Assembly: GCA_001724265.1 (NCBI GenBank)
Contig: MEDY01000147.1
Location: forward strand, 1-64,000
Source of the DNA: Rhizaria sp. SCN 62-66
Lineage: Eukaryota
Length of the DNA stretch: 64,000 nt
Reading direction: 5' to 3'
Every line of letters starts with the position of its first letter. Within the stretch, counting starts at the first letter, position 1. A model generated the notes under the pieces. That model saw only the letters and a program-made list of their open reading frames with translations, was not told where the DNA came from and did not search any database. The position numbers were made by a program, and so were the translations under genes. Below are positions 285 through 46,873 of the stretch, piece after piece.

Positions 285-566
285 TTTCTGTAATCTCAAG
301 GATAAATCCTATCTTGCAGATCAATCCAAAGTTGGCGGCCTAGGCCTGTCCTGAGTCTGCGGAACAGTACTGGGAGGGCCGAAGTTAAGCCGCCCACCAC
401 AAACCACTTTTGGGTCATGAAAACTCTCGTTTTGACTTGAAACGCAGGCTATATCAATGCCACATCAGTCAAAGTATGTTTATGTCAGATTATGCAATAG
501 TCAAATATCTATATCTTGGAGTTCTATGACAAAACATAAATCTATGTCGCTATATCTTTGTTCTAA

Positions 567-11300: not shown

Positions 11301-11526
11301 GACCGCGGCCGACTGTTGCTCCAAGCGACGACGACGTTGCCGGTGTGGCTGCGGGTGCGGCCCCGTTGCGGCTGCTGCTGCTGCTGCTTCTGCTGCTGTT
11401 GCTGTTGCTGGCGCTGGCCCATGTAGTCGCGGGCACTCGGGTTGGGAGCAGCGGTAACGGTTGCCGTCGCAGTGTGCCGCCGGGGCAATCCGGGCTGGCG
11501 AGCGCTCGAAGCATTGACAGACAGCA

Positions 11527-11575
<49 letters not shown>

Positions 11576-11887
11576 TGATGACGGTTGCAGCTGTGAGCGC
11601 GATTGTGACTGCGTGTACGCGTTCGACAGAGGCAGGACGGGACCGTGAGTCGCACTAATACCGGGAGCAGCAAAGTTGCCACCGCTACCCACAGCCTTAT
11701 GCGCCTGCGTTGACACTTGGTGCTGCTGCTAGTGGAGCCACCACATCTGCTGCTTCAACTGTTCCGTGGTGGCGGCGCGCTCCGCGGCGGGCTGCACGGT
11801 CGGGGACCGGAACCGAGAGATGAACGAGGCAATCACGCCCGTGGCAGCAGGTTCGGATGGAGCGCGCGAGGGCGAGGGCGTCGCCAT
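8312..11887 (-). CDS. Uncharacterised low-complexity (Ser/Gln/His/Ala-rich) protein, ~1191 aa if the in-frame TAG at 11731-11729 is read through
   Basis: ATG at 11887 in GCCATGG context with GC-rich coding-like codons. The frame continues across one TAG into the 1134-codon ORF 8312..11716. No recognisable domain. Ends in TAA. Confidence 0.7.
11527..11582. repeat. (GAC)n/(TCG)n trinucleotide microsatellite encoding a poly-Ser tract on the minus strand
   Basis: Run of about 15 GAC units visible directly, followed by GAT units. Confidence 0.95.
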
Positions 11888-12488
11888 GGCGGGGTATGCG
11901 CGGGCAGGCGAGCTGGGAAGGAGGAAAGCGAGACTGGCTGGAGGAGGTGAACATCGTTGGAGAAGGAGCAAACCGGGAAGTAAGTTAGATGTTAGTCGTT
12001 GCAAACAATTTTTAAGTATTATAAATAAATGTTTCATAAAACACAGGACATTGGAATTCATAACGATTATCGGAGGAACCATCGTTCTTGGTCTTGTCAA
12101 AGTTGGCGTCGATTCGAGAGAGCTGTTGGAGGCTACCGTCGGCTGTCCGCCCAGTGTCAGACACCGTGACTTTCGGCCCACTTTCGACAAGCACAGCGTT
12201 TCTGCCAGATCGTCAATAGTCCTATCAATACGATGTCACCACTTTAAACTCTCTTATTTATTTGCCCGCTGATTATTCTCTCTTAAGATCGAACGCTGAC
12301 CTCTCTCCTGCCTGTTTTGCGTACCATACTTTTCGTTGTCTTCGCCCGCCTTGCCTCACTTCCCGCTAGTGTTGCTCAGACTACCTGACAACATTATTCT
12401 TCATACACCAAAACACTGCGCGGTTTAAGCTGAATTTTTCTTCCACAAGAACGCGTTTTTATTGCTTCAGTAGGCGTTTGTGGCCCGC

Positions 12489-14061
12489 ATGAGCGCCCCG
12501 ACCCCGATGGGCCCCCATAGGCCCCCGTCCCCCGCCGCCGCGCCCGCCTCCGCCCTCATCTCTGCCTCTTCATCCGCCTCCGTCTCGTCCTCCGCCGCTG
12601 CTCCCGTCGCACCGGCGCCCGTGCCCTCCGCGCGCGTGCGCTCGTTCCCGCGGCTGCCTGCGTCCTCGGTTCCCGCCGCGCTGGCGCAGCGCGACCGCGC
12701 CGTCGTCGCACTCGCGGCCGCTCTGGCCCCGACGCGGCCGCGCGTGGCGGCGCTGGCCCGCGGGTTGGGCGTCCCGGTTCCTCTGTACGCCGACGGCAGC
12801 AGCGACAGCGCTGAGAGCGTTCGGCAGGAGCAGGAGCAACACCAAGGCAACCACAGTGCTGCTGTAAGTGCGAGAGCGAGAGCGAGTGATAATGCAGTTG
12901 CGGCTGCTGCGGCTGCGGCGACCGCCCGCGCCACCGCCGCGACCGCCGCCGTGACCGCCGCCGAGCAGGCGCGGCACTCTCGGTTCCCGTTCCCGTACAA
13001 CGTCGTGCACTTGAACTCGCAGCAGGGCTCGCTGCCCTTGGCAACGCTGGGGGCGCTGGAGAGGGCGTATCCCCCTGTCAAGGCGGCGGAGCCGGTCGAG
13101 ATCGACATTTTCAAGCGCTATAACATCGGCGACTATGATGTGAGTGACGATAACATGCGTAACAGCGACAAAAACAATCGTGATGATGATACTGGAAACG
13201 TTAGCTTGAATAGTTCCGACTCTGAAGACTTTGACGCGTACATCTTTGGCAACAACAACAGCAATAACGCCGACACCAAGCAGAACAACGCTAGCGCTGC
13301 GAGTGCTGCTGACAGTAGTGATGACGAAGACGGCGCCGATGACGACGATTACACGTGCTTAGACAAAGACTGGGATAGGCTATTTTTCCATGTCGTGCAT
13401 TTGGGCACCGATATTGACTATAGCGCTCCCTACAGCGACGTCGCCGCTGAGGACGCGGACCCAGACTCGCATCACTCATCGTCACAGTCCCGCACACAGT
13501 CGGAGTTGCTTCATTCCCACAGTAACGTGCCTATGTCCGACACTCACGACGCACGTTGCCTCTGCCACAGCAACGGCAACGGCAACAACAATTACAATCA
13601 CATTCACAGTAACTCTGCTTACCTGTCGACGACGACCATGCTGACGACAACGACGACCGACTCGGCCACGGGTGCCGTTGTCAGCACACGCAGTGTCGCC
13701 TACCCGACTCCTCTGCAGTCGTTTCTGCCCTCTTTGCCTCTGTCGCTGACACCCTTCACGTCACACCGCCCCGACAAGCAAAACAACAACGACTACGACT
13801 ACGAGAGCAACAATTGCATGAGCTCTCACATCCCGTGCCCTGTGCACGGCCATCGCGCTGCTGACAGCGACAGCGCCGACACTCTGTCTAAGCGCCGCTT
13901 CGTGTCGGTCCTTAGCCTGCCGCAGCCCCCTTACATCAACCACTTGTACGCCTCGGCGCTCGGCCTGGGCCCCGATGCCCACGCCACAGCGATCGCCGCC
14001 CTCAGCGCGGCTAAGCCCGGTGCCGGCGACGGCGACAAGGCTGCCGGCGACAAAGACAACT

Positions 14062-14099
<38 letters not shown>

Positions 14100-14517
14100 T
14101 CCGGAGCCGGCGCGGCGCGGGCGGCGGACGGCGGCGAGGCGTGCGTGCGGTGCCGGCAGACGGTGTTTGTGAACTCTGACCTGGGCGAGCGCGTGTGCGC
14201 GACGTGCGGGTTTGTGTCGGCCGACTACCTGCAGGCCGAGGCCGATCAGGGCGCCGAGTTCGACGAGGACGGCCAAGTCAAGCAGGGCAAGCTGCGCAAG
14301 ATGCAGTTCCTCAATCTGAGCGAGCAGAAGGGCAAGACGGTCACTGCCACTGCACGCGCTGCCGCCGCTGCCGCCGCGGCTGCGGCTGCCAAAGAGAAAG
14401 GCGGCGGCCACGGCGGCGGTAGTGCTTCGATGGCGCACTTGCTCGGCGACGATAACGAAGAGGAGCAGCAGACGCAGGAGAGCGCTTCCGGCGCTGGCAA
14501 CAGGGCGTTTGGCGCGC

Positions 14518-14550
<33 letters not shown>

Positions 14551-17500
14551 ATCTCGGCGGCGGCGGCGACAACAGCGGGGGCGACAGCGACGGCGGCGGC
14601 GACGGTGACGACGATGATGGTGGTAGCGGCGGCGACAGCGACGGCGGCGGCGGTGGCGGCCGCGGCAATCGCGGCGGCGGTAGTCTTGCTGCCGGCCGCG
14701 CATGGCGCAGCGGGCAGAACCACGCCCGCAAGGCCGCCGCAGTCGAGGCCGAGCGCTCTCTGCTCGACCTGTCACTGTCTCAACACTTGGATGTGTACAG
14801 GACGCTCTGGCTGAGGCTGGGGCCGCCGGCGCGCGCGCCTGTGGTCACAGCCGCCGAGGTCGAGGCCGTTACGAAGGAAATTGCACAGGCTGAGTCTGCT
14901 GCTGCGGAAGCTGCGGCCGCCGAGGCCGCTGCTGCTGCTGCCGCTGCTGCAGCCGCTGCGAACGATGATGACGATGATAAGATCCCCGATCTCATTTCTG
15001 TTCACGACGAGCCTATCAATCAGAACAAAGACGCTGGCAGCAAGAGCTCGAGCGCGAGTCAGCTTCGTGGCTTTGTCACCAGCGCAACCGCCGCCGGCTC
15101 TCAGTCTCACGCGGTGGTCGCGAGCGCGGCGATTAATCCTTTCACTCCCGCGGCCGCTGCAGCGCCGTCGGCCGTGCGGTCGGCCCACGAGATCCGCGCC
15201 GCGCTAGAGAGCAAGCGTCGGCTGCTCAAGGCGCTGTCGGCGCGCGCGACGCTGATCGCGCTGGCGCCGCCGCTGCAGCTGCAGGCGACGCGGCTGGCGC
15301 TGCAGTCGTTTCAGCTGCTGCTGCTGCGGCTCGCGGGCGCGGCCGTCGCGGCAGGCGCGGCGCACCCCAGTCTGGTCGTCCGCGTGGGCCGCGTTTGGGC
15401 CAAGTTGCTGCAGTGGTGGCGCCAGACGGGCTGGGGCGCCGATGCGGACAACGCGGCCGTGGTGCTGGTGACGTACAAGCCCACGGTGGCTGAGCTGCGC
15501 AAGCAGGCTCGCTCGCGCCAGCTCGCCAGCGGCCGCGGCCTTGGAGGTCGCGACGGCGGCGTCACTCGCGGTGGCGATGGCGGCCTCGGTTATGACGACG
15601 CCGAAGACGACGACGGCGACTGCGAGCAGGACGACGACGGCGGCGACGGTGTGTGGTTCGACGACATGTCCACTTCGGACGACTCATCCTCCAACGAGTC
15701 GGCCGGCCCCCGCCACGGCTCGTCGTCGTCGTCGCTCTCGTCCGACAGTGAGCAAGACGCTCCAAAAGCCAATTTAGGTCAGACAACTCTCCCTGGCTTC
15801 AGTCGGTACAGTAAGCGTAGTTTAAACAGCCGCCGCCGCGCAAGCACCCGCAGTCGCGGCGATGTTGACAGCGACAGTGGCAGTGACGCCGTCGCCAGTG
15901 ACTGTGAGCGCGACGACGTTGGCCGCGACTTGGGTGAGGACCACGAGCAGCAGACGCGCATCAAGAGCATCTTCAAGTCGCACTTCGGCTCCTTTATCGT
16001 CTCCTCAGCGTACAAGGACACCAAGAAGAGCAACTCTGTCTCTCGCGCCCACTTCCAGTCGCAGCTCAGGTACATTCCCCGTCAAAGCGACGGCCGTTTC
16101 GTCGGAGTGCCCCGCGACAACCCCGCCAAGGACGCGCTCGACGGCAACCGGACATCGCGCCACGTGCGCCGCACTCGCCGCGCCGCCGCGCTGGCCCAGG
16201 CGACGGCGCGCGCGGGCGTCTCGGGCGTCGCGGCCACGGTCTTCCGCTACGTCGAGCAGCCCGCCGACGGCTCCGTGGCGGCCTCCGCGCAGCACCCGGA
16301 GCGCGCGGGCGCGCTCACCGGCGCGGCGCTGGCGAGCCGGCGCAAGAACGTGCCCATCCAGCTCGACCTGGGCATCACCACCGCAGTTGGCACCGGCGCC
16401 GCGGCCGCGCTGGGCGGCCAGACCGAGGAGGAGGCCGCCGCGGCGGTCGCGGCCGCGGCGGCGGAGGAGGCGGCGCGCAGGACCGCGGCCGAGATGCTGC
16501 CCACCAGCGCGAACTTTGTGCGGAAGAATCTGTGTCTCTCCACTGATGCAGGCAGCAGCGCGCGTACATCTGCCAAGGGTAAGGGTAAGGGCAAGAGCGC
16601 TAAGGGCGACGCCGACAGCACGGATACTGAGTCCGGCGCGAGCGCGAATGCGCGGAAGCTCGCCCGCTTGCTAGCGACGCGCGCAGACGACGATGACGGT
16701 CACGACGGGGACAGCGGTAGTGGCGTGAAGAGCCTCATAGTCAGCACCGCAGTGTCAGACAAGGTGGCCGCTTCAATTGCCATTGCGACCGCGATCAGGC
16801 TGTCTGCACAGCCGACTATCATCAATACCTCGAGTTCCTCTCACGCTAGCACCAGCACCAACAGCAGCAACAGCAGCAACGACTTTAGCAGCAGCAGTCG
16901 TAGAACGAGCGTCATCGCTGTGAACACGAATCCTGGCACTGTTCGTCCCATCATCGCTGAAGTCAAGCCGCCTGCCCTCCCCAGCCCCGCAGCGAGCAGG
17001 ATCAGCTTTGCTCCGGACGCCGCTCGCGCCCAGAGCGACAGCAGCAGCCCCAGTGACAGCGACGACGGCGCGCGCGTGAACAGGAACGCTCTTGTCCCGC
17101 GGGCTAGTGCCAAGAGAAAGCCGCGCCGCGTCACGGCCATCCTCACGACTCCGCAGGCCGTCGCGCCCGCGACCTCGTACCCGCTGCTGCCACTGCTGAC
17201 TCCCGCCCGCGTGGCCGCCGCGACGCTGCTGCTGCGCGCGCAGGCCGCGTCGCCGACCGCGGGCGTGCCGCTGGGCGCTCTATCGCAGCTGGCCGCCGTG
17301 CGCCGCATTGCTTCCCGCTCGCTTGCGCGCGCGGCCGCGGTTGCCGGCGCGGAGGCCGCGGCCGCCGCGGGCGTGACCGACGCCGCCGCGGTTGAGGCCG
17401 CTGCCAGGGCTGCGGCCGTGGCCGCCGTGGACGAGTCGCTCAAGCGCAAGCGCGGCCGCGGCGGCTGGGCGGCGCGCGGCGGCGGCGGCGGCGACGGCGG

Positions 17501-20500
17501 CGCGTACTCCGGACTCGATGCCGACACGGAGGCAGAGATGGAAGGGGACCCCGTGATGAAGGCCGCCGAGGAGGCTGCGAAAGCGACGGCGCGCGCGTTT
17601 CTCGCCAAGCAACGGCAGCAGAGTTCGAGTGACAATGACTCTAGCGACAGCGATGCGGCGTCGGAGGCGCGGGCGCGGGCTGAGGCTGAGAACAAGGCTC
17701 GGCTGCGGCGGCAACAGCAGAAGCAGCTGCGCCGCCGCCGCATGAAGCGCGGCTACGCTGAGAGCAGCAGCGGTGATAGCGATACTGACAGCAAGGGCGC
17801 GGCGGGCCGCGGCCGCGGGAAGTCAGCGCTCGAGAGTAGCAGCAGCGAGTCAGGACGCGACTACGACGACTTCGAAGCGAAGCCACTTAGGGGCGCTGCG
17901 AAGTCGGCAGGCAGCACTCGTGCGAGCACAAGTGTCAAGGCTAAGGCTGAGGCGAAGGCGGAGGCTCGACTTAAGAAGGCTGAGGCGAAGGCCAACAGTG
18001 CGATCAGCGAAGTGCGCACGGCCGCTGCTGCCGCCGCCGCTGCCGCTGTCACCTTGTCGGCTGAGACAGCGGCGGCCGGGTCTGTGCCGCCAGTGACGGA
18101 GGCGTTGGCTGGGAGTCGCGAGTTGAGCAAGATTATTGCGGCTATCGCCGCTGCCGCTTCGCGTGCCGCCTCTGTGTCGACGCGCACCAAGATCATCTTC
18201 ACTGCAGACGCGCAGAATAGCTACAACACTCAGGGCGACGACAACGACGACAGCGCCGCCGACGACATCGACGGCACGGTCCTCGATGCGCGCCTCTACC
18301 GCATGCGCCGCCGCCTGCGGATTGATTCGGTAGCCTCCGCGCCCGCGATGGACCCGGCCGAGGCGCTGCACGGCAAGGCGCCGTACCCCGTGCTGGTGAC
18401 GCAGCACCAGCGCCTGCCGGGGTATGTGCTGACCGCGGTGCAGCGCTACCTGGCGCGCACGCTCGTGCCCGCGGCCGCGCTCTACCTGCCGCGACACGCG
18501 CCGACCGTACGCGCGCTGAGCCGGCGGCAGCAGGAGTACGTGCTGCTGCGGAGCTCGGCCGTGGGACAGTTCATGCTCGTCATGAGCGGCGTGATGAAAG
18601 AGCTGCCCGTGCCGGAGTACTTGGAGCGCTACTTGCTTGCTCTCGAGGTGGAGCCGGAGAAGCAGCGCGGCGACCGGGGGATGAAGATGCAGGCCCGTTA
18701 TGAGAAGGAAAGGCTGCGGCGGAAGCAGTGGCGCCAGAAGGAGCGAGAGCGCAGGGCGCTTGCCCGCAGCAACAGCGCGAGCAACAGCACGAGCACGAAC
18801 GCCACTCAAGCTGACACTTCTTGTGACACTGCTTCTGCATATGTTGACTCGACTTCGTCTGTTAGCGCGACTGCAAGCGTTGGCGCTAGCGCTGCTAGCG
18901 TTAATCGTGTTTCGACTGTCGATGACGTGGACGACGGAGTCAGCTCGAGCCAATCTCAGCCTTTTCACCCTGACACGACAGGTGAAAACACAGAGATCAA
19001 TGTCCCTGAGCAAAAGCTTGTCTTTACCTGTCGCTGCCGCTGCGGCTTCTGCCATCCGCCCGGCACCACGATCCCCCCCGCGCAGGCGCTCGCCGTGGCG
19101 GCGGCGCGGCGCACTGCCGTCGCCAACGCCCGCGTCGCTGCGACCGCAAAACACGCCTTGGAGGCGGCGCGGCCCACGAAACTCAAGGCCCGCCGCGTGC
19201 GCACGTGGAAAGACGCGAGCAAGGCGCCTGCGAGCACGCTTAGAAACCCGTACAACGTGAGCACCAACAGCGAAGCGCTGCTGGAGGAGGCGCTCGCCGG
19301 CTTCAGCTCCGACGACGACGACGATAGTGACGAGACAGACGACATCAGCGGTGGCAGGAGCACGCGCAAGAAGCGCACTGCGGGCGCTGGCGTCCGTGTG
19401 AACAGCGGCGCGCTGCGCGTGCTGCAAGACGTGCAGGCCGCGACGGCCGACGAGCGCAAGGGCGTGTACACTGCGCTGCGCGCCGAGACGGCCAAGGTGG
19501 CGCGCGCGGTGCGTGCGTTGGCGGCCGAGTCTGCTGCGCTGGGCAGCAAGAGCAATGATAACGGCGGTAACGCTGACAAGAAGACCATCGACAGCAAAGA
19601 CAACGTTGGCGAGTCACTTGTCGGCTCTGAGGCTGCGACTAATGGACCCATTGTGAAGACCGAGACTCTTATGGGTCACGGTGTCAAGCAGGAGGCTGAG
19701 GCCGCTCACGGTCAGCCGTCTAATGCGGCTGTCTCTCGTCACTCGTTGAACCCGACCCGCGGGCGCTTCAGCCCTGTTGCGAAGAACAAAAAGAGTAAGA
19801 GCAAGAGCAGGGGCAAGAGTCTGGACTCAGACTCAGATTCTGAATCGAGCTCAATATCAGACTCTGAGTTGGATGTCAATACTGACAGTGTCTCTAGTAG
19901 CACCGCGACTGGCACCAAGCGCTCTCGTCTCTTCGGCTCGAACGTTCGTGCCGACAGCGCGCCTCCTGTCACAACCCTTCTCGGCCTTTCAGCGCAACAG
20001 CAGCAGTTTGACGCTGTGACCACGCGCCTTGAGACCGCTGCCCGTGCCGCCAGCTCGCTGTCCATTGCGCACTCCCGCCTACTTCTCAACAAAACCGTGG
20101 CCGAAAGCAGGACCCGCGCCTCACTCGAGATCAGGCGCCAGCGTGCGACCGCGCTCGACGTCGCGACTGCGGAGGCCGCGGCCGCAGCGGAGGCGGAGGC
20201 CACGCTGTGGCGGCGCGCGGCCGAGGAGGCCGCAAAGACTGATTCGCATAACTTGAACAACACTGCATTGACTGTCCTCAACGGCAGTAGCAGTAGTAGC
20301 GACGACGTCGACATTGATGACGAACGCGTTGACGGGATTGTGGACGTAGACGATGTTGACGATGGCGACGACGAGATGATGCACACGAGCCACAGTCTCA
20401 AGAGCAAAAGCGATCTTAAGAGGGCAAGGCGCGGTGCCGCTGCTGATGCAACAGCTGTTGCTGCTGCGGCCGCTGCGGTCGCCGCTGCTGCAAGCGGTGG

Positions 20501-23500
20501 CGGCGTCGACCTTGCGACTGCTCGTGGTCGCCCAGACTCCCCGCAGTCGCAGCACCTGGTGAGCTCGCTGTACTCTCTCCCCGGCTCTCTAGTCTACGAC
20601 GAGGACGACGTCTTTCCTGCTCATAGCCAGATCTCGCTCGCACAGTCGTCACAGTCTCAGCTTTCTCAAGACCAGTTTGACTTCGACAGCGACGGTTACA
20701 CTGGCGCGAGAGCGGCGGAGCGGGCGATGAGCGCGGGCGTGTTTGCGCAGGTTTCGGAAGAGAAAACCACATTCAGCTCTTAGTCGCTTGTCTTTGAGCC
20801 CCAAAACCAGCTGCCGCAGCAGCAACAACAGCAGCAACTTCAATCGACGTACACTAGAGCTCCTGCATCTGGCCACTATCAACCTGGGAGCTCTAACCCT
20901 AGAGGCCCCGTGTCACAGGAGAACGACAACATCCACCGCTCGCGCTCCGGCTCTCGCCCCCGCTCTCGCGGCGCGACGGCGACTGGGTCCGGCGTCAGCA
21001 GCGGCATGAGCGCCGGGTTTGTCGCCGCCACTGGCGCGCGCGTTGCCATCCCGTGGCAGCTGAACCCGCTCATCCCCGTGCTGCCGTCTGCCAACACCGC
21101 GTTCGCACCCTCATTCGTGCCGCACATCACAGCGTTACCGCTTTTTACGACACGCAATGCTAATTCTAGCGCCGTGGGTTCTCAAACGGCATCCAGTACC
21201 AGTGACTCGAGTGTGAGCTCTAGTGCGAGTGCGAGTGCGAGCTCTAGTTCAGTGTCTGCATCTGTTCTCCTGTCGTCGGGTGCTGAGGTTCCCCTCACGC
21301 AGTTACACGCGGGCATCGGTGCTGGCTTTGAGTCTGGCTCACAGTCGTTCCTCTCTGCGCAGGCCGTGCCGACTCTGATGGTGTCGCTGCTTGGCGCCAA
21401 CGCCCGCTTGCAGGCCCCGTTTTACCGCCGCAGCTCGCGCGCAACGTCATTCACGACATTCGCTCGCTCTTATGCTGCAGCTCAAAACGCGTCGGCAACA
21501 TCAACAACCGGCGCAAGTGCTGATGACAATGCTGCTGGCGCTGCAACCGCGACGGCGCTGACTGTGAGCGATGACGCGAATGGAGACATTGGCTACGGCT
21601 TCACCGCCAGCGGCCGCGTGCGCCTGCGCCCCATGGCGAAGCACCGCGAGGCGGCCGAGCTCGCGGCCGCGGGGCTGCGCATAGGGCTCAGCGGGACCGT
21701 GTTCGGCCTCGGCGCTCTGGTCACCACCGTTGCGAGCGACCCGCTGCCGAACAAAAGCACTACCGAAACGACGTTGCTGCGCTTAGTTAGGCCGCCACTT
21801 CCCCCAGCGTCTGCTGTCGTTTTACACGACATGGACAGTGTGCTGGGCCCGGTTTTCATTCGCTACTTTGAGGGCTCCACGTTCTGGCGCAACGCGGCCG
21901 CAACCTACCGCTACATGCACGTGCAGACCAGGGATATGCTGCTGATGCACTACTTCAAGTACATGAAGGCATCATTCGCGCGCTTCCAACGCCGCAGCAG
22001 TAGTGACGCGAACGCGAGCTTGTTGCCGTTGCTGGTCCACGACCTCACTCTCTGGCTCGGGCTCTGCTCCCTGCCGTCGCCGGCGCTGGGCCCCGTGGTG
22101 CCGCCCGCGCTGGCGTTCGCGGCGCACACCGAACACCAGCAGTGGTACTCGATGTGCGAGACGGACCGCGCGAGCATGATCGATCATATGTCGCACTCTG
22201 TCTCGCAGCAGTTGAACACTGGCAGCGCGAACGCTGACTCTCATGCTGTGCTGCCTAAGGGACTTATCGCGCTTGTTGAGAGTGGTCCTGCGATCCCCAC
22301 TTCGCTTGCATCGGTGCAAATCCTATCTGAACAGCTCAAGAACACACTTTTCCGGCTCGTTTTCCCGCCGCAGTCCATGTTGTATCATCTTCCCCAGCCG
22401 ACCATTGTGACCGCCGTCACGTCTGCGACGCAGCGTGCTCGGCGCATAATCACCAAGGCCTCTGCGGCGTCTCCTGCCACTCCCGCCGCAACTTCTGCTG
22501 CTTCCGCAGCAGCGTGTGCCGTGTCGACCCGGCTCATCGTCTCGCTCCGCGCACGACCCCCCCTCGACTACAGGCAAACGCCGCGCTTCAGCAATGGCTT
22601 TGCTGGGCCCAGTGATAAAGAAGACGCCGCTGACGATGACGAAGCCGACGTTTCTGTCAACATTGCAAAGCCTGTGTTTTTGTCGTACCCGTACCATGTC
22701 TACGCGAAGCGCCGCCGCAGTGCAGTCAGCGCCGCGATGGCTGCGCTCATCGCGCGGGCGCCGCGCATCGCGGCCGGGCTGAGCGCCCGCGCCACTCTGG
22801 GCACCAGCACTCGCGCTGGCGGTGACTCGGCGATTGTCGATGGCGCGGCAAACACGTACACCGACGCCGACGGTGCGTACACCGGAAGTGCACTGGACAC
22901 TTACGAAGCTGCTCTGACCGCAGCGGCGCGCGCCATCACGGCGACGCAGACTGCAGCTAAGAGCGGTCGCGCTAAGGGTCAGCGGACTGGCGTCACAGGC
23001 AGCCAGAGCAATAGCACTGGCGATACTGTCACTGCTGCTCACGATGACTACGACCACAGTCGAAACGCTCGCGCTCACGGAGGCGGCGCCAGCGCGTTCA
23101 GTGTCTTGTTTGGCCACTTAGACACGCGCGCCCGCCACGTCAAGTATCACACCCTCTTGGACGAAGAGGAGGCCCTGGCGGGGCTGGCTCCGTGCCGCTG
23201 TGTGTGCATGTACGCCACGCTGCCCGCGATCACGCGGCCACCGTCAGCGTCGCTGGCGCCGAAGCCTCTGCAGGCGGCTGCAAGCAGTGGCGGCAGTGAC
23301 GCTACGACGAAGCCCAACGAGACTATGAGCGATAATGACTCTTCTTTGGCTCAGAATGCGATGAATGGTTCGAGTTCCAGTGCAAGTGCTACTGCTCCAG
23401 TAGACGACAATGTTGCGGTTATGAAGCAGCAGCCTCGTGTCACATTTGACATCCCAGACGGCAACGCTTCCGGCTCTAGCTCTGCTGCTGCCGCTGACTT

Positions 23501-26500: not shown

Positions 26501-29500
26501 TCCCCAATGGCGCCACATAAACAACCCCACCAACACCAGCGTCGCGAGCGCTGCGTCCAATACTATGACCGACCGCGACTGGGTTGGTGCTGCCCTCGCT
26601 GCTCGCGCCGCTGCGCCTGCAGTCGAGGCTTTAGTCTCGCTTCTCGAGTCGTCAAACGACACCAACAACTCTAATAACAGCTCAAGTGCGAGTGCGACTA
26701 GCGTTGTTAGCGCTGTCACTGAGATGAATGAGCGGGTGTTACAGGCTGCACGCGAAGTGCTTTCTCCTGCGCTGCCCAAGTGCGACGCTATCGCGAAGCA
26801 CCCCTTCATGCTTAATACCAGCATTAGTGAAACTGCAAGTGATCTTGCTCAGCCCCACTCTCAGTCTCAGTCCGCGCAGCCCTCGTCCCTGTCAGCGCTG
26901 GTGCCAAGCAACCCGCTGGAGCTGGCCGTGCAGCTGGGCCTGGCGCCCGCAGCGCGGCCGCTGGTGCTCGACTACCGCGCCCGCGCGCTCGGGCCCGCAC
27001 ATGACCCCACGCGGAACTACCGGCACACGACGTCGCAGAGCATTGCGAGCGCGCTGCATCTTGCTGATGTTGCCACAAGCCAGAGCAACAACGGCAGTAA
27101 AGCCAAGAGCGGCAACAATTGCGCGGACGCCCCTGCCACTGGCGATGTTTCGACTGACGCTGCTGTCGAGCAGAGCATCACTGACAGCGAGAGTGACAGT
27201 GACAACGACACCGTCAGCGCTAGCAGCCGTGCTATGAGTGACAATGACAACACGGTCAGTGACAGTGATGTTGATGCTACTCTCGACACGGACGATCACC
27301 GCGCCGACCGCGACGGTAAGAACAGCGCTTCGAGCAGCCGCAGCTCTGCTAACGGGAAGCCTGCCACGATTCCGCTGCCCGCTACGTACACTGAGCCCGC
27401 TGAGGACGCAGTCTCGCAACTGGCTTCGTTCCTGGCCTTCGCCCGCATCCCGCCCCCCGCGGCGCTCACCGCTGCCGCCGCCACCGCCGCCGCCACCGCC
27501 GCCGCCGCTGGCGCTACTCCAGCGACTGCGGTGGCTGAGACTGCGACTCGGCTGCACGCGCGCGCGATCCTGCGGAGCGTGCTGGCGGCGAACCCTGTGC
27601 TCGCGATCACGGGCGTGCTGAAGCGCAAGCACCTCAAGTGGCACAAGGACACGGTGAGCGAGGCGCAGATTGACATGCTGAACAGGGTGCAGGGCTGGAA
27701 GATTCAGGGCTGGAAGTCCAAGAAGAGCAGCAGCACCGATGCAACCACTGAAGCTGAGGCGAACGCTAACGTGAATGCCAGCTATGACGCCCGCACGTCA
27801 GGCTCTGCTTCCGATTCTGCTACTGACTCTGCATCTGCATCTGCTTCTGCTTCTATTTCTGCAAGTAACGATGTAGTCGTTAAGATTGAGGATGTTGCTG
27901 AAGCGAGTTTAAGTGCCAGTGTGAGTAACTCTTCTGTATTATCTTCTGAGTCTGCTCCCTCGATTCAAGCGAGCGAGGATTCTGGCGATCTTGACTCGAA
28001 CATCTTAGACGGCCTTTCTGAGGAGGACCGTGAACTTCTGCTTTCGATGGGCATCTCTCTTGTTCCCGCGAGAAACAATACCAACAACAATAACTTGGCT
28101 TCGAGTTCTAATTCAAGCTCCAGCGCAATCGCTAACAACGCCAACTCTAGCGAAGAGACTGCTGCTGCCGAACCTGTTACGCCTATCGAGGACCCTGCTG
28201 CCGCTGCAGCCGCTTCTGCCGCCTCCGCCTCCGCCGCTGCCGCCACGGTTGTGTCCCACGCTGTCTCGGCCCTGTCCTCCGCTCACGCTGCCAGCGCGGC
28301 CCGCGCCGCGGCGGAGGCCGCCCGCCGCGACACGGTGCGCTCGCTGATGCCGCGAGAGGTGGCGTTCCTGCCGCTGGTCGAGAAGTTCGACGCCGAGACG
28401 GTAAGGGCGAGGCTCAACCCGCTGCAGCCCACCTCGGCCAGTTTTAACGGCAACACAAGCGCTTACGACGTTGAGCAGATGCCCAGTAGCGCGGATATCG
28501 GCGTTGACGGGAGCCATGCCACATTTGCTACTGGCGCTACCAATGTGACTGCGGGCCTCTCGACCCGTGTCGGAAGCACAATGGGCTCGATCCCCTTGGC
28601 GCCCGCGCCCGCTGGCACTGCCGCGGCCGCCCAAACTGCCGCGGCGCTGCTCTCGTCCCTCACGCCGACCTACGCCGCCTGCGCCTCCGACCTGCTGACG
28701 CTGCTGTTCTCGCTGTACCACGCGCTCCCGCTGCCGCGTACCGACCTCTCCGCGCTCGGCGCCGACGAGAAGGCGGAGAAGGCAGCTGCGGAGCGGTCGG
28801 CGAAGCGGCAGGCCATGCGGACGAAGACGCGGCAGACGCGCGAGACGAACCAGACCACTAAGAGGAGGCTTAACGATCTCAAGAAGCAGTGGAGGAGTGC
28901 TCAGCAAAACAAGGACAACAACAATAGCGGCGCACTGAGTTTGATGAGCGATGATGATACTGTTACGACCGCGAATATTGCCACCAGTGCTACTGCAGAT
29001 AGTGCAAGTTCCTCTCGTGTGCCCAGTGTCAGTGTAAAAGACGCGATCATGTCGGCGTCTCGGGCGGCCGTGGCAGGTACTATCTTGACTCTGAGCGCGA
29101 AAACCAAGGCCAAGTCAGGGGATGCGCGGACTTGCGAGCTTAGCTCTGTGTCTGCTGCAGTTGCTGCAGCGTCTAGCTCGAGGAGTGAAAGTGAGAGCGA
29201 GAGCAGTGACGAGAACGACGACGCAAATGCTGCTGTAGCTGCGGAGGACGACAGTGCGAATGAGGCTGAGGCTGAGATCGTGATAATAGACTCTCAATCA
29301 CAGTCGCAGCTTCATAGCAATGCTCCCGACCGGGACAACGACGGCGATACCGATGATCTTGAAGACAGTGAAAAGTACCACAGCCGCTCTGAGCGCAACC
29401 GCATCGCTCAACTTTACACTTCATTTGCCCAGATTGCACATTCCACCACTAACAGCAAGAGTTCTAGCGCTAGTTCTGCCCACGGGGTCGGTGTCGGCGT

Positions 29501-32500
29501 CGACGCGGCTGACGCCGAGTCGGTTCTGGCCGCCACCGCCTCGCTGGCGCTGCTGTCCCCGATTCTGCTCTCGCAGCTGGCGCTCTTCACCACCGGCCCC
29601 GGAAATCTTGGCGCCGCGGTTGCGCACGCCGACGCGCGGCCCTGGGAGCGCGTGCTGCTGCGCCTCCTCTCGCCCGCCGCGCTCCCGGCCCCCGCACGCG
29701 AGCAGTTGCTGCGCACCTCGGTCGCGCTCAGGCTGCGCGCGCGGGCCGCCACCACCGAGGCCACGGCCGCTGCCGCGGCTGCGGCGGCGGCGGCGGGCGC
29801 GCGTCTGGCCAACACCGGCGTGCTGCCGGCGCTGTCGCGGAAGCGCGGCACGGTGCAGGGCAAGGCGAGGCTGCTCAGCGAGACTGCGGCGGCGCTGGGG
29901 GTCAACAGCATCCCTCCGTTCTTGGCGGAGGTCACGGAGACTGTTCCCGCTGCAAACGACAGCGGTTCTTCTTCTTCATCTGTGTCTGTGTCTGCGTCTG
30001 CGTCGGCTTCTGCTGGGGATGTGACTGTACGCCGGTCCGTCGTCACCGCGCAGTCGCTCGCGCGCGCCCGCAGCGAGGTTGCCCGCGTCCGCGCCGCCGT
30101 GACGCTGCTGCTGATGCTCGACAGCCACGTCCGCAGCAGCACATCGGCAGTTAACAATCCTGCCGCAGCGCGCGTGCCACTGTGGCTCGCCGCGGCACTA
30201 GCAGCCAACGCCAGCACCGCCGCTGCGCAGTCCCGCTCTCACACGCTTTCGCCAACTCACAATCGCGGTCTTTCCCATGCTCTCGGCCACTCCAGGAGGC
30301 CGAGCAGTGGAGTGACTGTCACCCCGGTCAGGTGGGTCGGCGTTGTGTCGGCCGCGACTGCTGCGGTTGCTGCCGGTACTGCTGCTATTGCAACCGCCAT
30401 GGCAACGCGCATCTCTAGCAGTGGCAATAATCACATCAGTTCCAGTGCTCGTGCATCCACGACTCATGAGTGCGCCTGCGACTCTGCACATGACAACAGC
30501 AAGACTGATGTTACTGACGTTTCTAATGTCGTTCTTGGTGCTGACACAGAGGCTATTGCTGTCGCTGGCACTCCCACGCGCGCTGCCGCCGCGCTGGCAC
30601 GGTTCCTTGAGTCGCTTTCTCTCGGCGCTGCGGTGCTTACCCCGTCGAGGCAGGCGCTCACACTGCCGCAGCGCGAGGCGCCGCTTTGGATCACGGTCAC
30701 TGCACCGAACGGCGGCGCGGCTAGCTCGGCTTCTGCAGTTGCAGCTGCGACGCATGCGACAATCAGGGTTGCTGGGAACAACGGTAATACGACGCCTGTC
30801 GCAATTCCTCATGGTAGCTGTGGAATGAGCAGTTCTGTGCTCACCGTAACACCGCCGCGCTGGGTATCTCTGCTCGCCGCTGCCACTGCCGCGTCTACTC
30901 GCACCACACAGACGATGCACAGCAACAGCGACAGCACAGCGACGGCTTCCAGTCCCAGCGCCAGTGCTCCCGTCCAGAGCGACGGCAGCGCGGCTCTGTC
31001 GCAGCGGGCTTTGGCGCTGGCGACGGGCCGCGCGTGCCTGACCCCCGCCGCGCTGTTGTCGCTGTCGCGCGACTCGCACCCGGAGCTGGCGGCGCCCAGC
31101 CAGGTGCTCAACGCGTTCGCGGCCACCCACAGCAGCGCCACTGCCGCGAACTCGAGCGCGCGCAATCGTGCCGTGGCCGCGGGCGACACCAGTGTCGATG
31201 CTCGTGAGACTGCTGGATCTGGCCTGAGTGTCGCTGCGGCGCGGAGGCGCGCTGCTCTTGCTCGCATCCGCGGCAACAACGGCGTTGGTGACAACAACAA
31301 AAACAGCTCGAATCCGAATACTGCTTTTACAGCTGTCCCTGCGATTGCGGCCGCAGATAGCTTCACAAAGAGCAGCAGCCCCACTCAGCCGTTGTTGCCG
31401 ACAACCCTGCGCGGGCTGCTCGGCTGCACCGGCGCCGTCGGCTCCCTTTCGTGGACGGTCACAACCGCCCTGCCCGCCGCCTCCGCTGCCGCTACTGCGG
31501 CCGCTGCTAACAGTGCGTCTGCTGTGGCACCGGCGGCTGCGCTCACGGTCACTCTGCTCACAGTCATCTCGGCGCTCGCAGCGCGCGCCAACGCCGCCAC
31601 TGCTGCTAAGTCTGCCGCTGTCGCCGCTACCGCCCACGCAACTGCAACTGCGACTGCTGCGGCTGAGGCTGCTGCGGCCGCAGAGCAGGCGCAGCTGCAA
31701 GCGCAGCAGGCGAAGGCGAGGCTCGGTCAGCGGCAGCAGCAGCTCGCGACTGCGGCGGCGGCAGAAACTGCTGCTGCGGCGGCTGTGAGTGCGGCTGCGA
31801 CCGCGAAGGCTGCTGCAACTGCTGCCGATGTTGCGAAGGCTGCTGCTGTTGCTGCTGCTGCCGCGCCCCAGCGTCATGAGTTATTGGGCCGCGGCCTAAC
31901 TTTGATGCACCTCGTCTTACCTTCACTAGCCCAAAGCGACGGTAACCGCAAGGGTCGTGGCAAGAGGAGTAAGAAGCAACAGAGCTCCAACAGCGGTGTT
32001 GCGATGATTGACGACAATGACAACGACGACGCCAGCGCCAGCGCAAGCTCGAGTTCGAGTGCTAGTGCCCCTGTTGTGAGTGGAGCTGAGTGGGCTGTGG
32101 GCGTGCTTCTCAACGCTTGCGCCCACACCCACTCTTCTTACGCTCGCAGTCGAAATATCTCTGCAGCCGCCGTGACCGTGGGCAGCGTTGCGCTCGCAGT
32201 CGCCGCTCTCTTCTCTCTCTGCCACCGCTGGTGTTCCCGCCTCTTGCCGCACCTCGCGTCCGCCGCCGCCACCGCCGCCGCTGCGGCCACTCTGACGCTG
32301 CGGCTGTCGCCGGTCGCGGCGGAGCGCGCGCGCGGACTCGCACTGCTGCAATCATTCGCTCTTTCTGACAAGAAGGTAGGCCGCGTTGTGTCCACTTACT
32401 CACGCAACGATACTTTGTTCAAGCTCTTCTTGTCGCACTCTAAGTGCACGCATTGTAAGGGTACTGTGTCTAAGGACAAGCTTACTGCGGTGGTGACTGT

Positions 32501-35500
32501 GGGCAGTGTGTTGACTGGCTCTGTGACTGCACACGCGGCGACTGTCGCGACTGTGTCGGCACTCGCGGCGGCTATCTCTGCTGTCAACACTGACAGTAAC
32601 AACGACAGCACCCATACTCGTCCATTGTCACTTCTTTCTCCTCTCTGTCCGTCGTCCACACATGGTTCTAGCAACAAGACTGTGCTTAAGACCACGGCTC
32701 CTGCCTCTCAGTCGCAATTGCTGTCGCAGTGCCCCAGCGTGCTGCGCCCCCCGTCCCGCCTGCCTCTCTTCCCCGCCGCCTCCGTGAGCGGCGGCGGCCT
32801 CTCGCCGGCGGCGTCCCTGCTCTTCTCCGAACAGTACCCCCTGCAGTCGCTGCTGCTTTCGCGCGCCCCCGTCGCAGTGCGCTACCTCACGCTTCTGCGC
32901 CGCGCCCTCAAGCTCGCAGCGATTCCCGCGCCCGGCAGGCCCGCGCTGCTGCCCGCCGCTGCCGCCGCCGCTGCGGCCGCCGCGGCCGAGGCCGAGGCCG
33001 GCGGCACGGGCTGGGCCGGCGATGCCTCCAGCGCCCCCGACGGCGGCGCTGGCGGCCGCGTCAGGGTCGGCGTGGTGGCCGAGACGCCGCCGCCACCGCT
33101 GCTGCTGCTGGTGCACGGGCTTGTGCAGACGGTGCTGCGGGCGATCGTGGACGAGGCCGATATCAACGCCGCCGTAACGGCCGCCGCTAACACTGCGATT
33201 TCTCCTGCTACAGACAAGAGCACAGCCACAAGTGACGGTCAACGCTCCAGCTCAAGTGCCAGTGCCAGCGCGAGCTCTAGCTCGAGTGCAAACGCTGGTG
33301 CTGGTGCTGCTGGGGCAGCGGGCGGCAACGCCCGTCTCTCTGGCCTCCTGGAGACCGCAGCTGCGGTGAGCGCGAGCATCGACCGCATTGAGGACGCGGC
33401 CGCCAAGGCCACGCGCGGCGTGTTCGTGCCCCCACGAAAGCCTCAGCCGCTGCTCGCCTTTGAGCCGGGGCTCGCTATTCTCTCGCGCAGCAATGCAACA
33501 TCAGCAAACGTGAGCAAGAGTGCGAGCGCAAGCTTTGCTACTGCTGCAACTGTTCCTTCCACTGACTCTTTGAGCAGTGTCGCGAGCGACACCGCGAACA
33601 CGAGGACTCGCGAGAGGCGTCCGTACCGCGCTATATTGGACTCCTTTTTGGCGTCGCTGCCCTCCGACCAGGCCGCCGCCGCAAGCACGCCCCTGCTGCG
33701 CGCCGCCGCCTCGGCTGCCGTTTCCCGCACTCAGGCTCACAGCACCAACGCAGGCGCCTACAGCGGTGGCGTCACGCACGCGCACCCCGCGGCAACCGCC
33801 CGCGCCGCCGCCGTCGCCGCCGCCGCCTCTGCGGCCGCAGCCGGCGGGGGCGCCGCCGTGCGCGACGCCGCGCTGGTCGCCGCACTGGCCACCGTGCCGG
33901 CGCCTCTGGCGACGCGCGAGCACCAGAGCGTGCACGAGCGGATTTTCTCCCCGCTCACTGCGAATGTCATCGAGACCGACGGCAGCGCGGGTCACGGCGC
34001 GACTCAGAGCGACGTGCACCGGGCGATCGCGCGGTGGGGCGACGATTACAGCGCGATTGCCGCGAAGTCCGCCTATAGCAGTGCCCAGAAAAGCCGTGCT
34101 GTCAAGTCAGAGGAGTCTAATAGTGGTGATGCCTCAGTCAAGCGCGAGTCCATTCACGTTGCTGACGTGACCGATGCGTGCCAGTCGCTTCCGGCCCTGT
34201 CCGCGGCCGTTTTCGCCGCCTCGGCCGCCGCGTCCCTCTCGCAGCCGCTGTCGGCGCGCCACCAGCTCGCGCTGCTCCCGACGTCCGTCGCCGGCGCCGC
34301 CGCGACCGCCGCACTGAGCCACTTCTCGAACCACGGCGACGCGCCTCTGCCCGCCAGCACCGAGGGCGCGGCGCTGCGCCACGCGCTGCATCCGCTGGAC
34401 CTGCTCACGGCCTCGTTGCCCGCCGCGCCGCTGTCGGTGGCCATGCAGCAGCCGCAGCGCCGCGGGCTCCAGGCGACTGGTCCGTGCGCGCCTGGGCCCT
34501 TCGCGGCCGCGCGCGCGGTGTCGCTCGCCGCTGCCGCCGCCGCCGGGCTGGGAGACGGCGCGCCGACTGAGACCGGGGCTGTCGCTGCGGCCGCGGAGGT
34601 GGCGGGAGCGGCCGCAGCAGAGGCGGCACGGGGCGCGCAGCGGGCGCTGGCGTCGGCGCTGACCAAGGTTGTGTCCACAGCGCACGCGACGCGTATCGCT
34701 AGCTCTGAGAGTAACGCCGTCAGCGCGCGCGTGAGGGCGGAGCAGGCTGCGAACATTGCGGCCACGACCGCGTTCACAGTCAACCCCACCATCGTTCTGT
34801 CCCACGAGCCGCTCACCGCGCCCCAGTCCGAGCAGCTCGCCGTGTCCGCCGCCGAGGCCGCCGCAATCGCGCGGCGCCGCGTGGAGCGGCTCGACCTATC
34901 CGGGCTGCGCAAGGAGCGCGCGCACGAGCTGCTGCGGCTTGTGCTGTCCCGCGGCGCGATGCGGCGCGCAGCCGTGCGGCTACAGCTGACGCCGGAGGCC
35001 GAAGGCCAGGCCGCAGTGGCGCGTGTTGTCGCGGAGACATGGCAGGCGCAGTCGCAGACCATTACCCCTGGTGTTGGTGAGTCTGGCCCTAGCAACGCGA
35101 TGCTGTTCTCATCAATCCCGCAGGCTGACTTGCCGTTCGGCGTCACACTGACGCAGTTTGCACGTCTAGCATCTCTCCTCCGTCCTCAGAAGCAAGAACA
35201 TCAGCAGCAGGAGGAGCAGCAGCCACCGAGTGTGATGTCTGACTCGGACTCGAACACTTCATCCGCCTCGGCTGTAGCTGCTGACCCCAGTGTATCTTCT
35301 GTCGATGTGACTGTGGCCGCCAGCGGTTCCGACCCTCGTCTCTGGCGCGCGCTCCAAGTCGACTTCGAGCACTCGCTTCTCGAGCAACTCAAAGTTAAAC
35401 CGCTGCTTATCCGCCTTCTCGGCGCACAAAGGACGGCATTTGCAGAGCCAACAGCTGCTGACGGCTACGACGGCAACGATTTTGACAACGACGCTGAGGG

Positions 35501-36758
35501 TGTTATTAGCAGTGCCAGCGATGACCGTGTTGTCGAGGGCGCTATTGAAGACGCCGCCGTGACTGCGGCAGACAGCAGCACTGCGCCGTGGCGGCGCTAC
35601 CCGCACCAAAGTCAGGCCGCAGCGCGCGTACGTGCCGCCTTTTCCGCTCGTGCAGCCGCCGCCGCGGCTGGCGCTGGCGCTGCCGCTGATATTGTCTCTG
35701 CTTCGAGCACTTCTGATGATGATGATGACAATGTTGCTGTTGTTGATGATGACAGTGATACTGACATCACTCAGAGCAAGAAGAGCAAGAGGGATAAGAA
35801 GAGCAAGAAGGACGGAAAGAAGGACAAGGCAAGCAAGAAGGATAAGAAGAAGGATAAGAAAGACAAAAAAGACAAGAAGGACAAGAAGGCGAAGAAGGAC
35901 AAGAAGGATAAAAAGGACAAGAGGGATAAGAAGGACCGCAATGATGAGGATGTCACGGGCGCCGTTTCGACTCATGATGCTATCGTGATCGATGAGCATG
36001 CTCCCGCAACTCCCGTTTCGGTTCCTGGTTCCCCTGCTTCACTTCCCGTGACTCCCGCGTCTGTTTCTGCTACTGATCTTCCTAACGCTAGCGAGAATGC
36101 TGGTGTAGCTGAGTCCGCAGGTGCTGATGCAGCTATCCGCTATAGTGCTAGCGCTGGTGCGAGCGCCTCTGCGAGTGCGAGTGCATCTGCGAGTGGTATT
36201 GCTGATACTGCCACGGAGAGTGCTAGTACCAATGCTGAAGATGCCGCGAGCGCGAGTGCTGAGGAGCAGGCGTCGCCGGCGGACAAAGAGCGCGCGCGCG
36301 CCGAGCGCCAGGAGCGGCTGAGGCGCAAGGAGGAGCGCGCCCGCATCAGGGCCGCGCGTCAGGCCCGTCGCGAGGCGAGGGCCTTGGCTGGGAGCAACGG
36401 CGCTGACAACGGCCGCGACAACGATAACCCCCCTGTTGGCAACGCGAACAAAGACGACGGCGAGAATGAGGACGCCGACGCCACTGCTCCTGTCACTGCG
36501 GCTGCGGCTGCTACTGGTCGGAAGCGCACGCATGGTGACGTGACAGCAGCTGACACGAACACTACTTCGACAGAGGCGGACGCAGCCTTTATCGCTGCTG
36601 ACGCTGACAGGAGTAACAACGCTCTTGTTCTCAATAACAACAATACCGCGGAGTTTGTTGCGAAGCGTAGTCGCAGTAGCGCTCTGGCAACGGACGCCAA
36701 CTCGATCAGTGCCGATTACAATAACGATGCAGCTGTCCTTGATGATGACAGTGACTAA
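12489..36758 (+). CDS. Giant intronless protein (~8089 aa with readthrough of the TAG at 20781-20783); TAF1B/RRN7-like RNA polymerase I TFIIB-related factor with very large low-complexity insertions
   Basis: ORFs 12480..20783 and 20910..36758 are in one frame, separated by a single TAG plus 42 open codons. Zn ribbon CVRC-x15-CATCG (14142-14210). Block LALQSFQLLLLRLAGAAVAAG..SLVVRVGRVWAKLL (~15290-15415) resembles the TAF1B/RRN7 FQxIL..W helix block. LSFPLAVAIVLAAAAAQGDALDHPTLRRVV (~23890-23980) resembles the following cyclin-fold helix. Ends in TAA. Coding status is well supported; the family call is tentative. Confidence 0.6.
35776..35935 (+). repeat. Lys-Lys-Asp (AAG AAG GAY) tandem coding repeat near the C-terminus of the giant protein
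   Basis: SKKSKRDKKSKKDGKKDKASKKDKKKDKKDKKDKKDKKAKKDKKDKKDKRDKKD. KKD/KKE tracts are typical of nucleolar proteins. Confidence 0.85.
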
Positions 36759-39274: not shown

Positions 39275-40065
39275 CGCGGGGCGGAAAAGCGCGGAACGCG
39301 TGCAACGGCGCCGGAGGGAAGAGTACGGGAGTGTGCTGGGCGGGGTTGGGTGCGGGGGCAGTCGCGGAGGCGCGCGGGAGCGAAAGAAGGGAAAGCTGTG
39401 GGAGAGGGGGGCAAAGGGGTCCGAAAGGATGAGTTAGCGACATGGGTTCATCGTTGAAGCGCACAAAAATAGCTCCACAAAATAAAATATTGACTTTAGA
39501 TAATATAATTCTTTTTAACAATGCCATCTTGCTCGTTGACATGCACTTCTCCCCGCTTTTGCGTGCGCGCAACAATTGCTTTGTCTCAGCGTACAGCTTC
39601 CTCGGGGTTCGCAAAAATTCGAACACAGCAACGCATCGTAGCCAAACAAAACGAGTGTATCTCGATGAAGAATGCACGAGTGAAAAAAATATCTTTTATT
39701 ATATTACATGTATGTACGTATAGAACTGTTCTTGATAATATTTTCTGAAAATAGAAGACAATGTAACGCAGCAGACGCTCGGAAAGTGTGACTCTCTCTC
39801 TCGTGTTGCCACTTGCATGTTGTCGCAGTTTGATCATCATGAAGAAGTGAACAGCAACAACATGTAACAATCACGTGTTCTTGAATGCTATCTAATCATA
39901 AAGAGAGAGTCAACAACAGCACGAAGACAAAGTCACAAAAACAAGGGAGTCACACTTACTTATAACGTGTCGCTCCCATATTTGTTTTGTAATTGTATCT
40001 TTACACTAACAAGCTGACTTACTGGTCAGTTTGTGTGTTGTTGCCAGCAACAGGCGGCTGTTCAC

Positions 40066-46839: not shown

Positions 46840-46873
<34 letters not shown>

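Follow-up and report, generated by a model that had tools for sequence, protein, structure and literature searches.

Does a reading frame of more than 24 kb, interrupted by one in-frame TAG, represent a single gene, and if so, what does it encode? The question is raised by positions 12489..36758 (+) of contig MEDY01000147.1 from Rhizaria sp. SCN 62-66 (assembly GCA_001724265.1), of which the first 64,000 nt were analyzed and are referred to here as the window. An initial annotation, made from the letters alone, had described this locus as an intronless gene for a roughly tenfold inflated TAF1B/RRN7 whose fold continues past the TAG. Rrn7/TAF1B proteins belong to the core of the machinery that initiates ribosomal RNA (rRNA) synthesis and normally have 500-900 residues. 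We put the probability at about two in three that the locus is one giant gene of the Rrn7/TAF1B family, from an organism in which UAG probably encodes glutamine (Gln). It would then be an intronless gene of ~8,090 codons from a GC-rich, uncultured eukaryote of bioreactors and activated sludge, with an N-terminal part that would be a diverged Rrn7/TAF1B, the TFIIB-like subunit within the core promoter factor for RNA polymerase I (Pol I). The giant is an extreme new variant of a known family rather than a new kind of system.

The giant reading frame and its N-terminal module

The locus consists of two stop-to-stop open reading frames (ORFs), 12474..20783 (2,769 codons) and 20784..36758 (5,324 codons), which lie in the same frame and have the TAG at 20781-20783 as their sole separator. 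In frame, the first ATG lies at 12489 and the TAA at 36756-36758 closes the frame, giving a coding sequence of 24,270 nt in a single exon: 8,089 codons, one of them the internal TAG, followed by the TAA. Residues are numbered here from 12474, the methionine being residue 6. The open frame comprises 8,094 codons and is far beyond chance, since each of the five other frames holds 88-385 stops over the same stretch. It contains no in-frame TAA, and a scan of GC content in 80-nt windows revealed no intron-like AT-rich stretch: windows below 42% GC occur at just three places in the ORF (13099-13268, 27814-27956 and 35685-35945), all of which stay open in frame and code for Asn/Ser/Lys-rich runs. 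ORF, stop and GC analysis thus confirm the earlier description of 24,270 nt in one frame with one TAG and without an AT-rich intron.

The encoded protein contains 20.5% Ala and 12.6% Ser, and the GC content at third codon positions (GC3) is 0.73. Tandem Repeats Finder reported only short arrays, every one with a period that is a multiple of 3, and self-BLASTP after masking found no internal repeats; the bulk of the protein is therefore not a recent tandem expansion. The Lys/Asp-rich (KKD) tract that had been noted near the end is indeed present (Table 1), and it might serve nuclear or nucleolar targeting. Two aromatic-rich islands of higher complexity (18264-18713 and 21714-22493, +; residues 1931-2080 and 3081-3340) look globular and have no match to any family, profile or Atlas cluster; an ESM Atlas search with residues 3081-3420 gave no usable match.

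Conservation of the frame can be observed directly. The stretch is found in bioreactor, wastewater and activated-sludge metagenomes, and four runs were aligned to 12400-32399 of the window. Run X4, from another study, is ~0.6% divergent (~99.4% identity; 12 letters in a contig of 1,897 nt). Among 40 of the 71 strain differences, those listed, 21 fall at codon position 3, and synonymous and nonsynonymous changes number 20 each, with TAG>CAG counted as nonsynonymous. Neither strain indel (+9 and +3) shifts the frame. Eight pieces of the ORF, from 15014-15429 through 30553-30903 and on both sides of the TAG, have colinear contigs in a polyA metatranscriptome, X5, and these contigs carry X4-type variants. 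None of the eight X5 pieces listed bridges 20781, and no credible RNA joint is present among those listed, all of which have sides of 18-23 nt in repeats. Contigs of this kind neither prove transcription nor reveal where transcripts end, and the possibility that they are DNA carry-over counts in principle against an expressed gene. Taken as a whole, the giant ORF is probably a real, expressed and intronless gene, its expression being indicated by the colinear polyA-RNA contigs.

In yeast Rrn7 (PDB 5n5y chain Q, 514 aa) and human TAF1B, helices 1-2 of the N-terminal cyclin domain come after an N-terminal C4 zinc ribbon; the giant shows this order too and is ~16 times longer than yeast Rrn7. The ribbon proposed at 14142-14210 is present, 551 aa (from the methionine) into the protein. 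Pfam PF08271 (TFIIB ribbon) matches at residues 557-584 below threshold, at 11-17 bits against a cut-off of 29 (best: 16.8 bits, E 0.005, on a 100-aa piece). The Rrn7-type ribbon profile PF11781 is not reported for it at E<=10, and BLASTP against the ribbon of an environmental protein, P0005, gives E 0.52. The helix block begins 350 aa further on, as the order in the Rrn7 family has it.

This helix block, proposed as FQLLL...VW at ~15290-15415, is the one strongly significant landmark. An exhaustive phmmer search with residues 543-1042 (14100-15599) against 1.84 billion representative proteins returned four matches at E<=1e-3, two of which are low-complexity; the other two, P0005 (E 7.8e-7) and P0006 (E 4e-5), lie on the helix block. 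Against a profile built from P0005, P0009 and P0006, residues 935-1017 score 54.4 bits, and in a block test the helix block scores 55.1 bits, a value reached by none of 200 local shuffles (best shuffle 0.8). When a block profile that includes the giant is compared with PDB, residues 102-142 of yeast Rrn7 are the best of three matches (E 0.0086); with the profile of the three environmental proteins, yeast Rrn7 is the sole match (E 0.098).

The intermediates themselves belong to the family. P0005 (855 aa) passes PF11781 Zn_ribbon_RRN7 (31.5 bits, cut-off 27.1) and scores 21 bits with PF20644 Rrn7_cyclin_N; its homologue P0009 (690 aa) passes PF20644 (34.3 bits, cut-off 24.1), and P0006 (843 aa) matched no Pfam family. 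P0005, P0009 and P0006 share with the giant the signature ...VGRVW..LL.WWR..GWGAD..., with block identities of 41%, 27% and 33%, respectively. Unlike the giant, they are unnamed environmental proteins of normal size, and the suggested inflation of about tenfold holds (8,089 codons versus 690-855 aa). Because P0005 and P0006 match the helix block, and P0005 and P0009 pass the Pfam RRN7 cut-offs, the block is homologous to Rrn7/TAF1B. At the level of sequence, N-terminal cyclin helices 1-2 are established by transitive homology through these intermediates, and the ribbon, which stands in family order, is probably homologous as well. Direct profile searches of the giant, taken by themselves, find nothing beyond a generic zinc ribbon, and only the intermediate sequences overturn that result. 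TFIIB-type cyclin repeats, as in TFIIB and Brf1 (the Pol II and Pol III paralogues), were looked for as well: no TFIIB cyclin family is found in the giant, P0005, P0006 or P0009, and beyond the ribbon the intermediates match Rrn7 families only.

Some results count against the family assignment. Neither the Pfam Rrn7 profiles nor any other Pfam family above its cut-off is found in the giant, whether searched as whole halves, as pieces or as 53 overlapping 300-aa tiles, and phmmer of 14100-15599 (500 aa) against PDB gives low-complexity matches only. The family has just three other members in the databases searched, and its profile is thin: word-indexed searches (with P0005, with profile A1, and with block profile A3 and longer proteins) returned only P0005, P0009 and P0006, and none of 267 pattern matches obtained by scanning JGI metagenome contigs with the block alignment was confirmed.

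In-frame TAG codons in three genes

At 20781 the window has T and run X4 has C, on a contig of 1,897 nt (19475-21371, depth 6.9), and this TAG/CAG polymorphism is observed directly. Around the TAG, GC is at least 0.51 in 80-nt windows, compared with 0.35-0.40 in three intergenic spacers, and therefore nothing resembling a gene boundary is seen there. Runs X2 and X3, at depth 5, retain T. Though the runs belong to different studies and years, the number, coordinates and depth of their contigs are the same, and the two may be one data set; their T alleles are therefore not taken as independent evidence.

Two further genes of the window, both on the opposite strand, contain an in-frame TAG (Table 1). 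In the Spo11/Top6A-like gene (567-3293), the domains TP6A_N (40.6 bits) and Toprim (49.7 bits) lie in one frame with the TAG between them. The second, a neighbouring gene of 1,191 codons (8312-11887), is low-complexity and has no Pfam family above cut-off; it begins with a Kozak-like gccATGg at 11887-11885, followed by 52 coding-like codons (GC3 0.84) before the TAG. Under the standard code its next ATG would lie 102 open codons beyond the TAG, leaving these 102 coding-like codons without a start. Each of the three TAGs joins long open stretches, with short sides of 168, 279 and 2,769 codons, and two sit in Gln runs. As a control, no TAA or TGA in the window joins real-frame open stretches with a short side above 109 codons.

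Across 11 genes (16,236 codons) there are 477 CAG, 121 CAA and 3 TAG codons. Terminal stops of ten genes are TAA in seven and TGA in three, and never TAG; with a typical TAG share of 20-25%, we estimate that ten genes without a TAG terminator would be met ~5-10% of the time. The dominance of TAA is in itself unusual at a GC3 of ~0.7. Outside the counted genes, the sole long ORF ending in TAG (40018-40683, +) was rejected as a real gene, as it is antisense to eIF2-alpha. Reading TAA as a further sense codon (table 6) was likewise rejected: the in-frame TAA of CDC45, together with TAGs, lies in AT-rich introns, and the giant has no TAA in frame.

In-frame UAG is thus found at Gln-type positions of genuine coding sequence at three sites in 64 kb. 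Because two more genes carry an in-frame TAG in Gln contexts and no gene ends in TAG, UAG is probably a rare Gln codon, and we consider it reasonably likely that UAG is translated in this organism, most likely as Gln. UAG, the one in the giant included, would be a Gln codon used at low frequency, with TAA and TGA serving as stops. The initial annotation had spoken of readthrough; the TAG probably does not split the gene, and the codon is better described as a rare Gln codon, given CAG in X4 and the two further TAG-containing genes. Three points speak against such a code. At 3 of 601 Gln codons (~0.5%), TAG is unusually rare for a reassigned codon; the 64-kb window contains no tRNA genes; and the contigs with the T allele, at depth 5, may come from one data set filed twice, or from the window's own source.

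The explanation that survives best beside Gln decoding is that the TAG is a true stop, created by a recent CAG>TAG nonsense mutation. The product would then be a 2,764-aa protein bearing the ribbon and the first cyclin helices; downstream of it, 5,324 codons would go untranslated in this strain and be intact in other populations. By default the standard code applies, genes of the window clearly end in TAA and TGA, and an in-frame TAG is very rare. The change is moreover a single transition from the CAG that X4 retains, and the T allele is known at depth 5 only. However, two more genes within 64 kb would need the same accident, each time producing TAG rather than TAA or TGA and twice within a Gln run, and in the Spo11-like gene the TAG is flanked by two essential domains. 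The lack of TAG terminators in ten genes also fits poorly, as does the finding that, past the TAG of the giant, 13 of the 23 listed strain differences are synonymous. We regard a nonsense allele as the less likely explanation, with a substantial minority share of the probability.

The search for the remainder of the fold

In comparison with Rrn7/TAF1B, what remains of the N-terminal cyclin domain, and all of the C-terminal one, are not securely found in the giant, and its ribbon scores as a generic TFIIB type, below threshold. In the block test, sub-profiles of the conserved blocks beyond helix 2 were compared with 200 local shuffles. The helix-3/4 block matched residues 6179-6206 at 4.3 bits and residues 3797-3826 at 4.1 bits, scores that were reached by one and two of the 200 shuffles, respectively. 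The other blocks were at chance, their scores being reached by 90 (mid), 61 (Cblk1) and 5 (Cblk2) of the 200.

In a chaining test, profile blocks were matched in order with gaps of any length. At jump penalties of 12, 16 and 24 the chain scored 97.0, 66.8 and 46.7, compared with null means of 75.3, 43.5 and 27.0; none of 150 local shuffles reached these values, and reversing the sequence brought the score to the null mean. Two ungapped segments, 3798-3815 and 6179-6199, give rise to the signal, and they are colinear. The top two ungapped scores were 37.0 and 36.0 against a mean null best of 26.6 (standard deviation 2.6), and in 300 ungapped shuffles a best score of at least 35.7 arose twice and a second-best of at least 35 never. 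The two segments might be the helix-3/4 units of two cyclin repeats. With 3798-3815 as helix 3, the stretch between it and helix 2 would measure 2,780 residues or more, where P0005, P0009 and P0006 have charged inserts of 110-250 aa.

Several observations weigh against this placement. At a jump penalty of 8 the chain is at chance (60 of 150 shuffles reach the observed score), and shuffles are a lenient null for natural helices. Alignment of the family with hhalign to four downstream pieces (two islands of globular look, the third landmark and the 6179 region) gave probabilities of 0.1-3.3%, with 3.3% for the third landmark and 1.7% (E 0.029) for the 6179 region. The two segments correspond to abutting halves of one helix region and lie 2,360 residues apart, which is structurally awkward. 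The C-terminal cyclin domain (PF20645) has no Pfam match in the 53 tiles, and the conserved C-terminal blocks of the subgroup were not found in the giant with a three-sequence profile of low detection power. Single-sequence AlphaFold2 models had a mean predicted local distance difference test (pLDDT) score of 41.5 for residues 6150-7000 and 37.7 for residues 3081-3900, and were unusable for fold search.

Of the two downstream landmarks in the initial annotation, the LAVAIVLAA helix (~23890-23980, the third landmark) is present and its match is marginal by both the block test and hhalign; the fourth, PLWLLAVSVVSLML (~26160-26205), is present in the translation and matched nothing in any test. 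With these outcomes, and with the C-terminal cyclin domain not found, the sequence suggests, but does not demonstrate, that the fold spans the TAG. Identity with TAF1B/RRN7 accordingly stands for the N-terminal module, through the intermediates and the top PDB match to yeast Rrn7, and does not extend to the rest of the fold. The remaining ~7,000 residues are mostly Ala/Ser/Asp-rich and low-complexity, with a few globular-looking islands.

These limits bear on an unlikely, though not far-fetched, alternative in which an Rrn7-derived ribbon and half a cyclin domain have come to sit on a giant disordered protein of other role, as a paralogue or fusion, and a normal Rrn7/TAF1B encoded elsewhere serves Pol I. 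Secure detection is limited to the ribbon and helices 1-2, the C-terminal cyclin domain and the family's conserved C-terminal blocks were not found, and more than 85% of the protein has no family match, all of which such a paralogue or fusion would accommodate. On the other hand, only P0005, P0009 and P0006 match among the 1.84 billion proteins, and the block is therefore not a widespread module; the order of the elements fits the family, and the marginal downstream helix matches are colinear. Great expansion of Pol I factors is also known from some protists, such as Toxoplasma gondii with an RRN3 of 3,150 aa, according to part of a 2025 review (PMC12235521).

Two further explanations carry little weight. 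The TAG could lie in a short in-frame intron (GT at 20751, AG at 20783 or 20810) or be an assembly error. GT...AG pairs do flank it, at distances of 33 and 60 nt that are each divisible by 3, and local GC dips to 0.51; but introns of the window are ~120 nt or longer, have ~30% GC and begin GTACGT, whereas the candidate begins GTTTCG and is not AT-rich, and it was rejected for its splice sites and composition. Against an assembly error, the X2 and X3 contigs also have T, though perhaps from the same sample, and we consider this pair of explanations very improbable. Least credible of all is a chance likeness to Rrn7/TAF1B in an Ala/Leu-rich sequence of 8,000 residues, which would explain the lack of direct Pfam Rrn7 matches and the chance-like hhalign results for the later landmarks, but not a helix block with E 7.8e-7 against 1.84 billion proteins, 54-55 bits against 0.8 for the best shuffle, and a top PDB match to the homologous helices of yeast Rrn7.

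If the locus is one giant Rrn7/TAF1B-family gene, as we prefer, the ribbon (557-584) and, 350 residues on, the N-terminal cyclin helices (935-1017) would act as in the family, with the ribbon extending into Pol I and the cyclin part holding together or organizing the promoter-bound factor. The rest of the TFIIB-like core may have diverged beyond detection or be scattered far downstream. This Pol I factor role is inferred from the family, and the place of the remaining fold and the decoding as Gln are inferences too.

Table 1 Coordinates of features in the giant gene and of in-frame TAG codons in neighbouring genes of the window.
Feature	Position	Residues	Strand	Basis or context
C4 zinc ribbon, C-x2-C-x15-C-x2-C	14142..14225 (motif 14142-14210)	557-584	+	translation and Pfam PF08271
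First helices of the Rrn7/TAF1B N-terminal cyclin domain (…SFQLLLLRL…VGRVWAKLLQWWRQTGWGADA…)	15276..15524	935-1017	+	phmmer and profile
In-frame TAG; CAG (Gln) in another population	20781..20783		+	run X4
Candidate cyclin helix 3, marginal, SAPLLPGSLSFPLAVAIV	23865..23918	3798-3815	+	overlaps the third landmark of the initial annotation
Second candidate cyclin helix 3/4 segment, marginal, ALALATGRACLTPAALLSLSR	31008..31070	6179-6199	+	block and chaining tests
Lys/Asp-rich (KKD) tract near the C-terminus	35777..35936		+	period-9 array, 17 copies
In-frame TAG, Spo11/Top6A-like gene	2454..2456		-	context CAG TAG CAA CAA
In-frame TAG, neighbouring 1,191-codon gene	11729..11731		-	context CAC TAG CAG CAG

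Neighbouring genes and relation to known systems

The window is eukaryotic, and the neighbours of the giant include Spo11/Top6A-like, SGF29, UTP15, eIF2-alpha, CDC45 and IFT-A-like genes. CDC45 (44297-47785, -) is split by two AT-rich introns, both of which keep the frame and contain in-frame stops; the second (45341-45460) has 120 nt and reads GTACGT...TATAG, and the first ends at the AG of 45860-45862. The eIF2-alpha gene (40066-41424, -) has two exons, with the S1 domain in 40756-41424 and the EIF_2_alpha domain in 40069-677. Owing to its GC-rich codon bias, the window has many long antisense ORFs throughout. Two other long ORFs, 41800-43953 (+, 717 aa) and 53384-55258 (-, 624 aa), have no Pfam family above cut-off, the latter giving only a borderline collagen-repeat match. 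UTP15 of the window has 722 aa, compared with 521-575 aa in the nearest UTP15 clusters. Low-complexity expansion seems to be general in this organism.

The Core Factor of yeast corresponds to SL1 in human. Rrn7 is placed in the three-subunit Core Factor in parts of two earlier reports (PMC5489313, PMC5599796), and the 2025 review describes, in part, an interaction of the Pol I dock domain with the Rrn7/TAF1B ribbon (PMC12235521). Like the giant, T. gondii RRN3 is presented there as a conserved Pol I initiation factor that has been inflated several-fold; it is a different factor, and the expansion is larger in the giant. The review also states that the apicomplexans that were queried yielded neither Rrn7/TAF1B nor any other part of SL1/Core Factor (PMC12235521).

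For the genetic code, the closest comparison is Iotanema spirale, in which UAG encodes Gln and UAA is the main terminator, a UAG-only change of a kind described as first documented in 2017 (PMC5304391). The window resembles it in that TAG occurs in frame within Gln contexts and terminates none of ten genes, the most frequent stop being TAA (7 of 10). It differs in that there are 3 cases in 64 kb, ~0.5% of Gln codons, and in that the proposed code is read here from protein-coding genes.

It is doubtful, though conceivable, that both peculiarities hold in full, namely that a GC-rich, flagellum-bearing sludge eukaryote uses a UAG-only code (UAG = Gln, at ~0.5% of Gln codons) and that its sole Pol I TFIIB-like factor is an 8,089-residue polypeptide with ribbon and cyclin helices thousands of low-complexity residues apart. 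With three in-frame TAGs and no TAG terminator in 64 kb, the organism is a candidate for a UAG-only code change; if this is true, automated annotation of its contigs under the standard code splits or truncates genes, and confirmation of the codon usage would add another example of a rare code variant. For the family, an Rrn7/TAF1B of ~8,090 residues would mark an extreme of non-globular load on a general transcription factor. It shows one way in which such factors could escape profile searches, as Pfam failed here and only intermediates provided the link. If the assignment is true, Rrn7/TAF1B proteins that appear to be missing from some protist lineages may hide in such giant genes.

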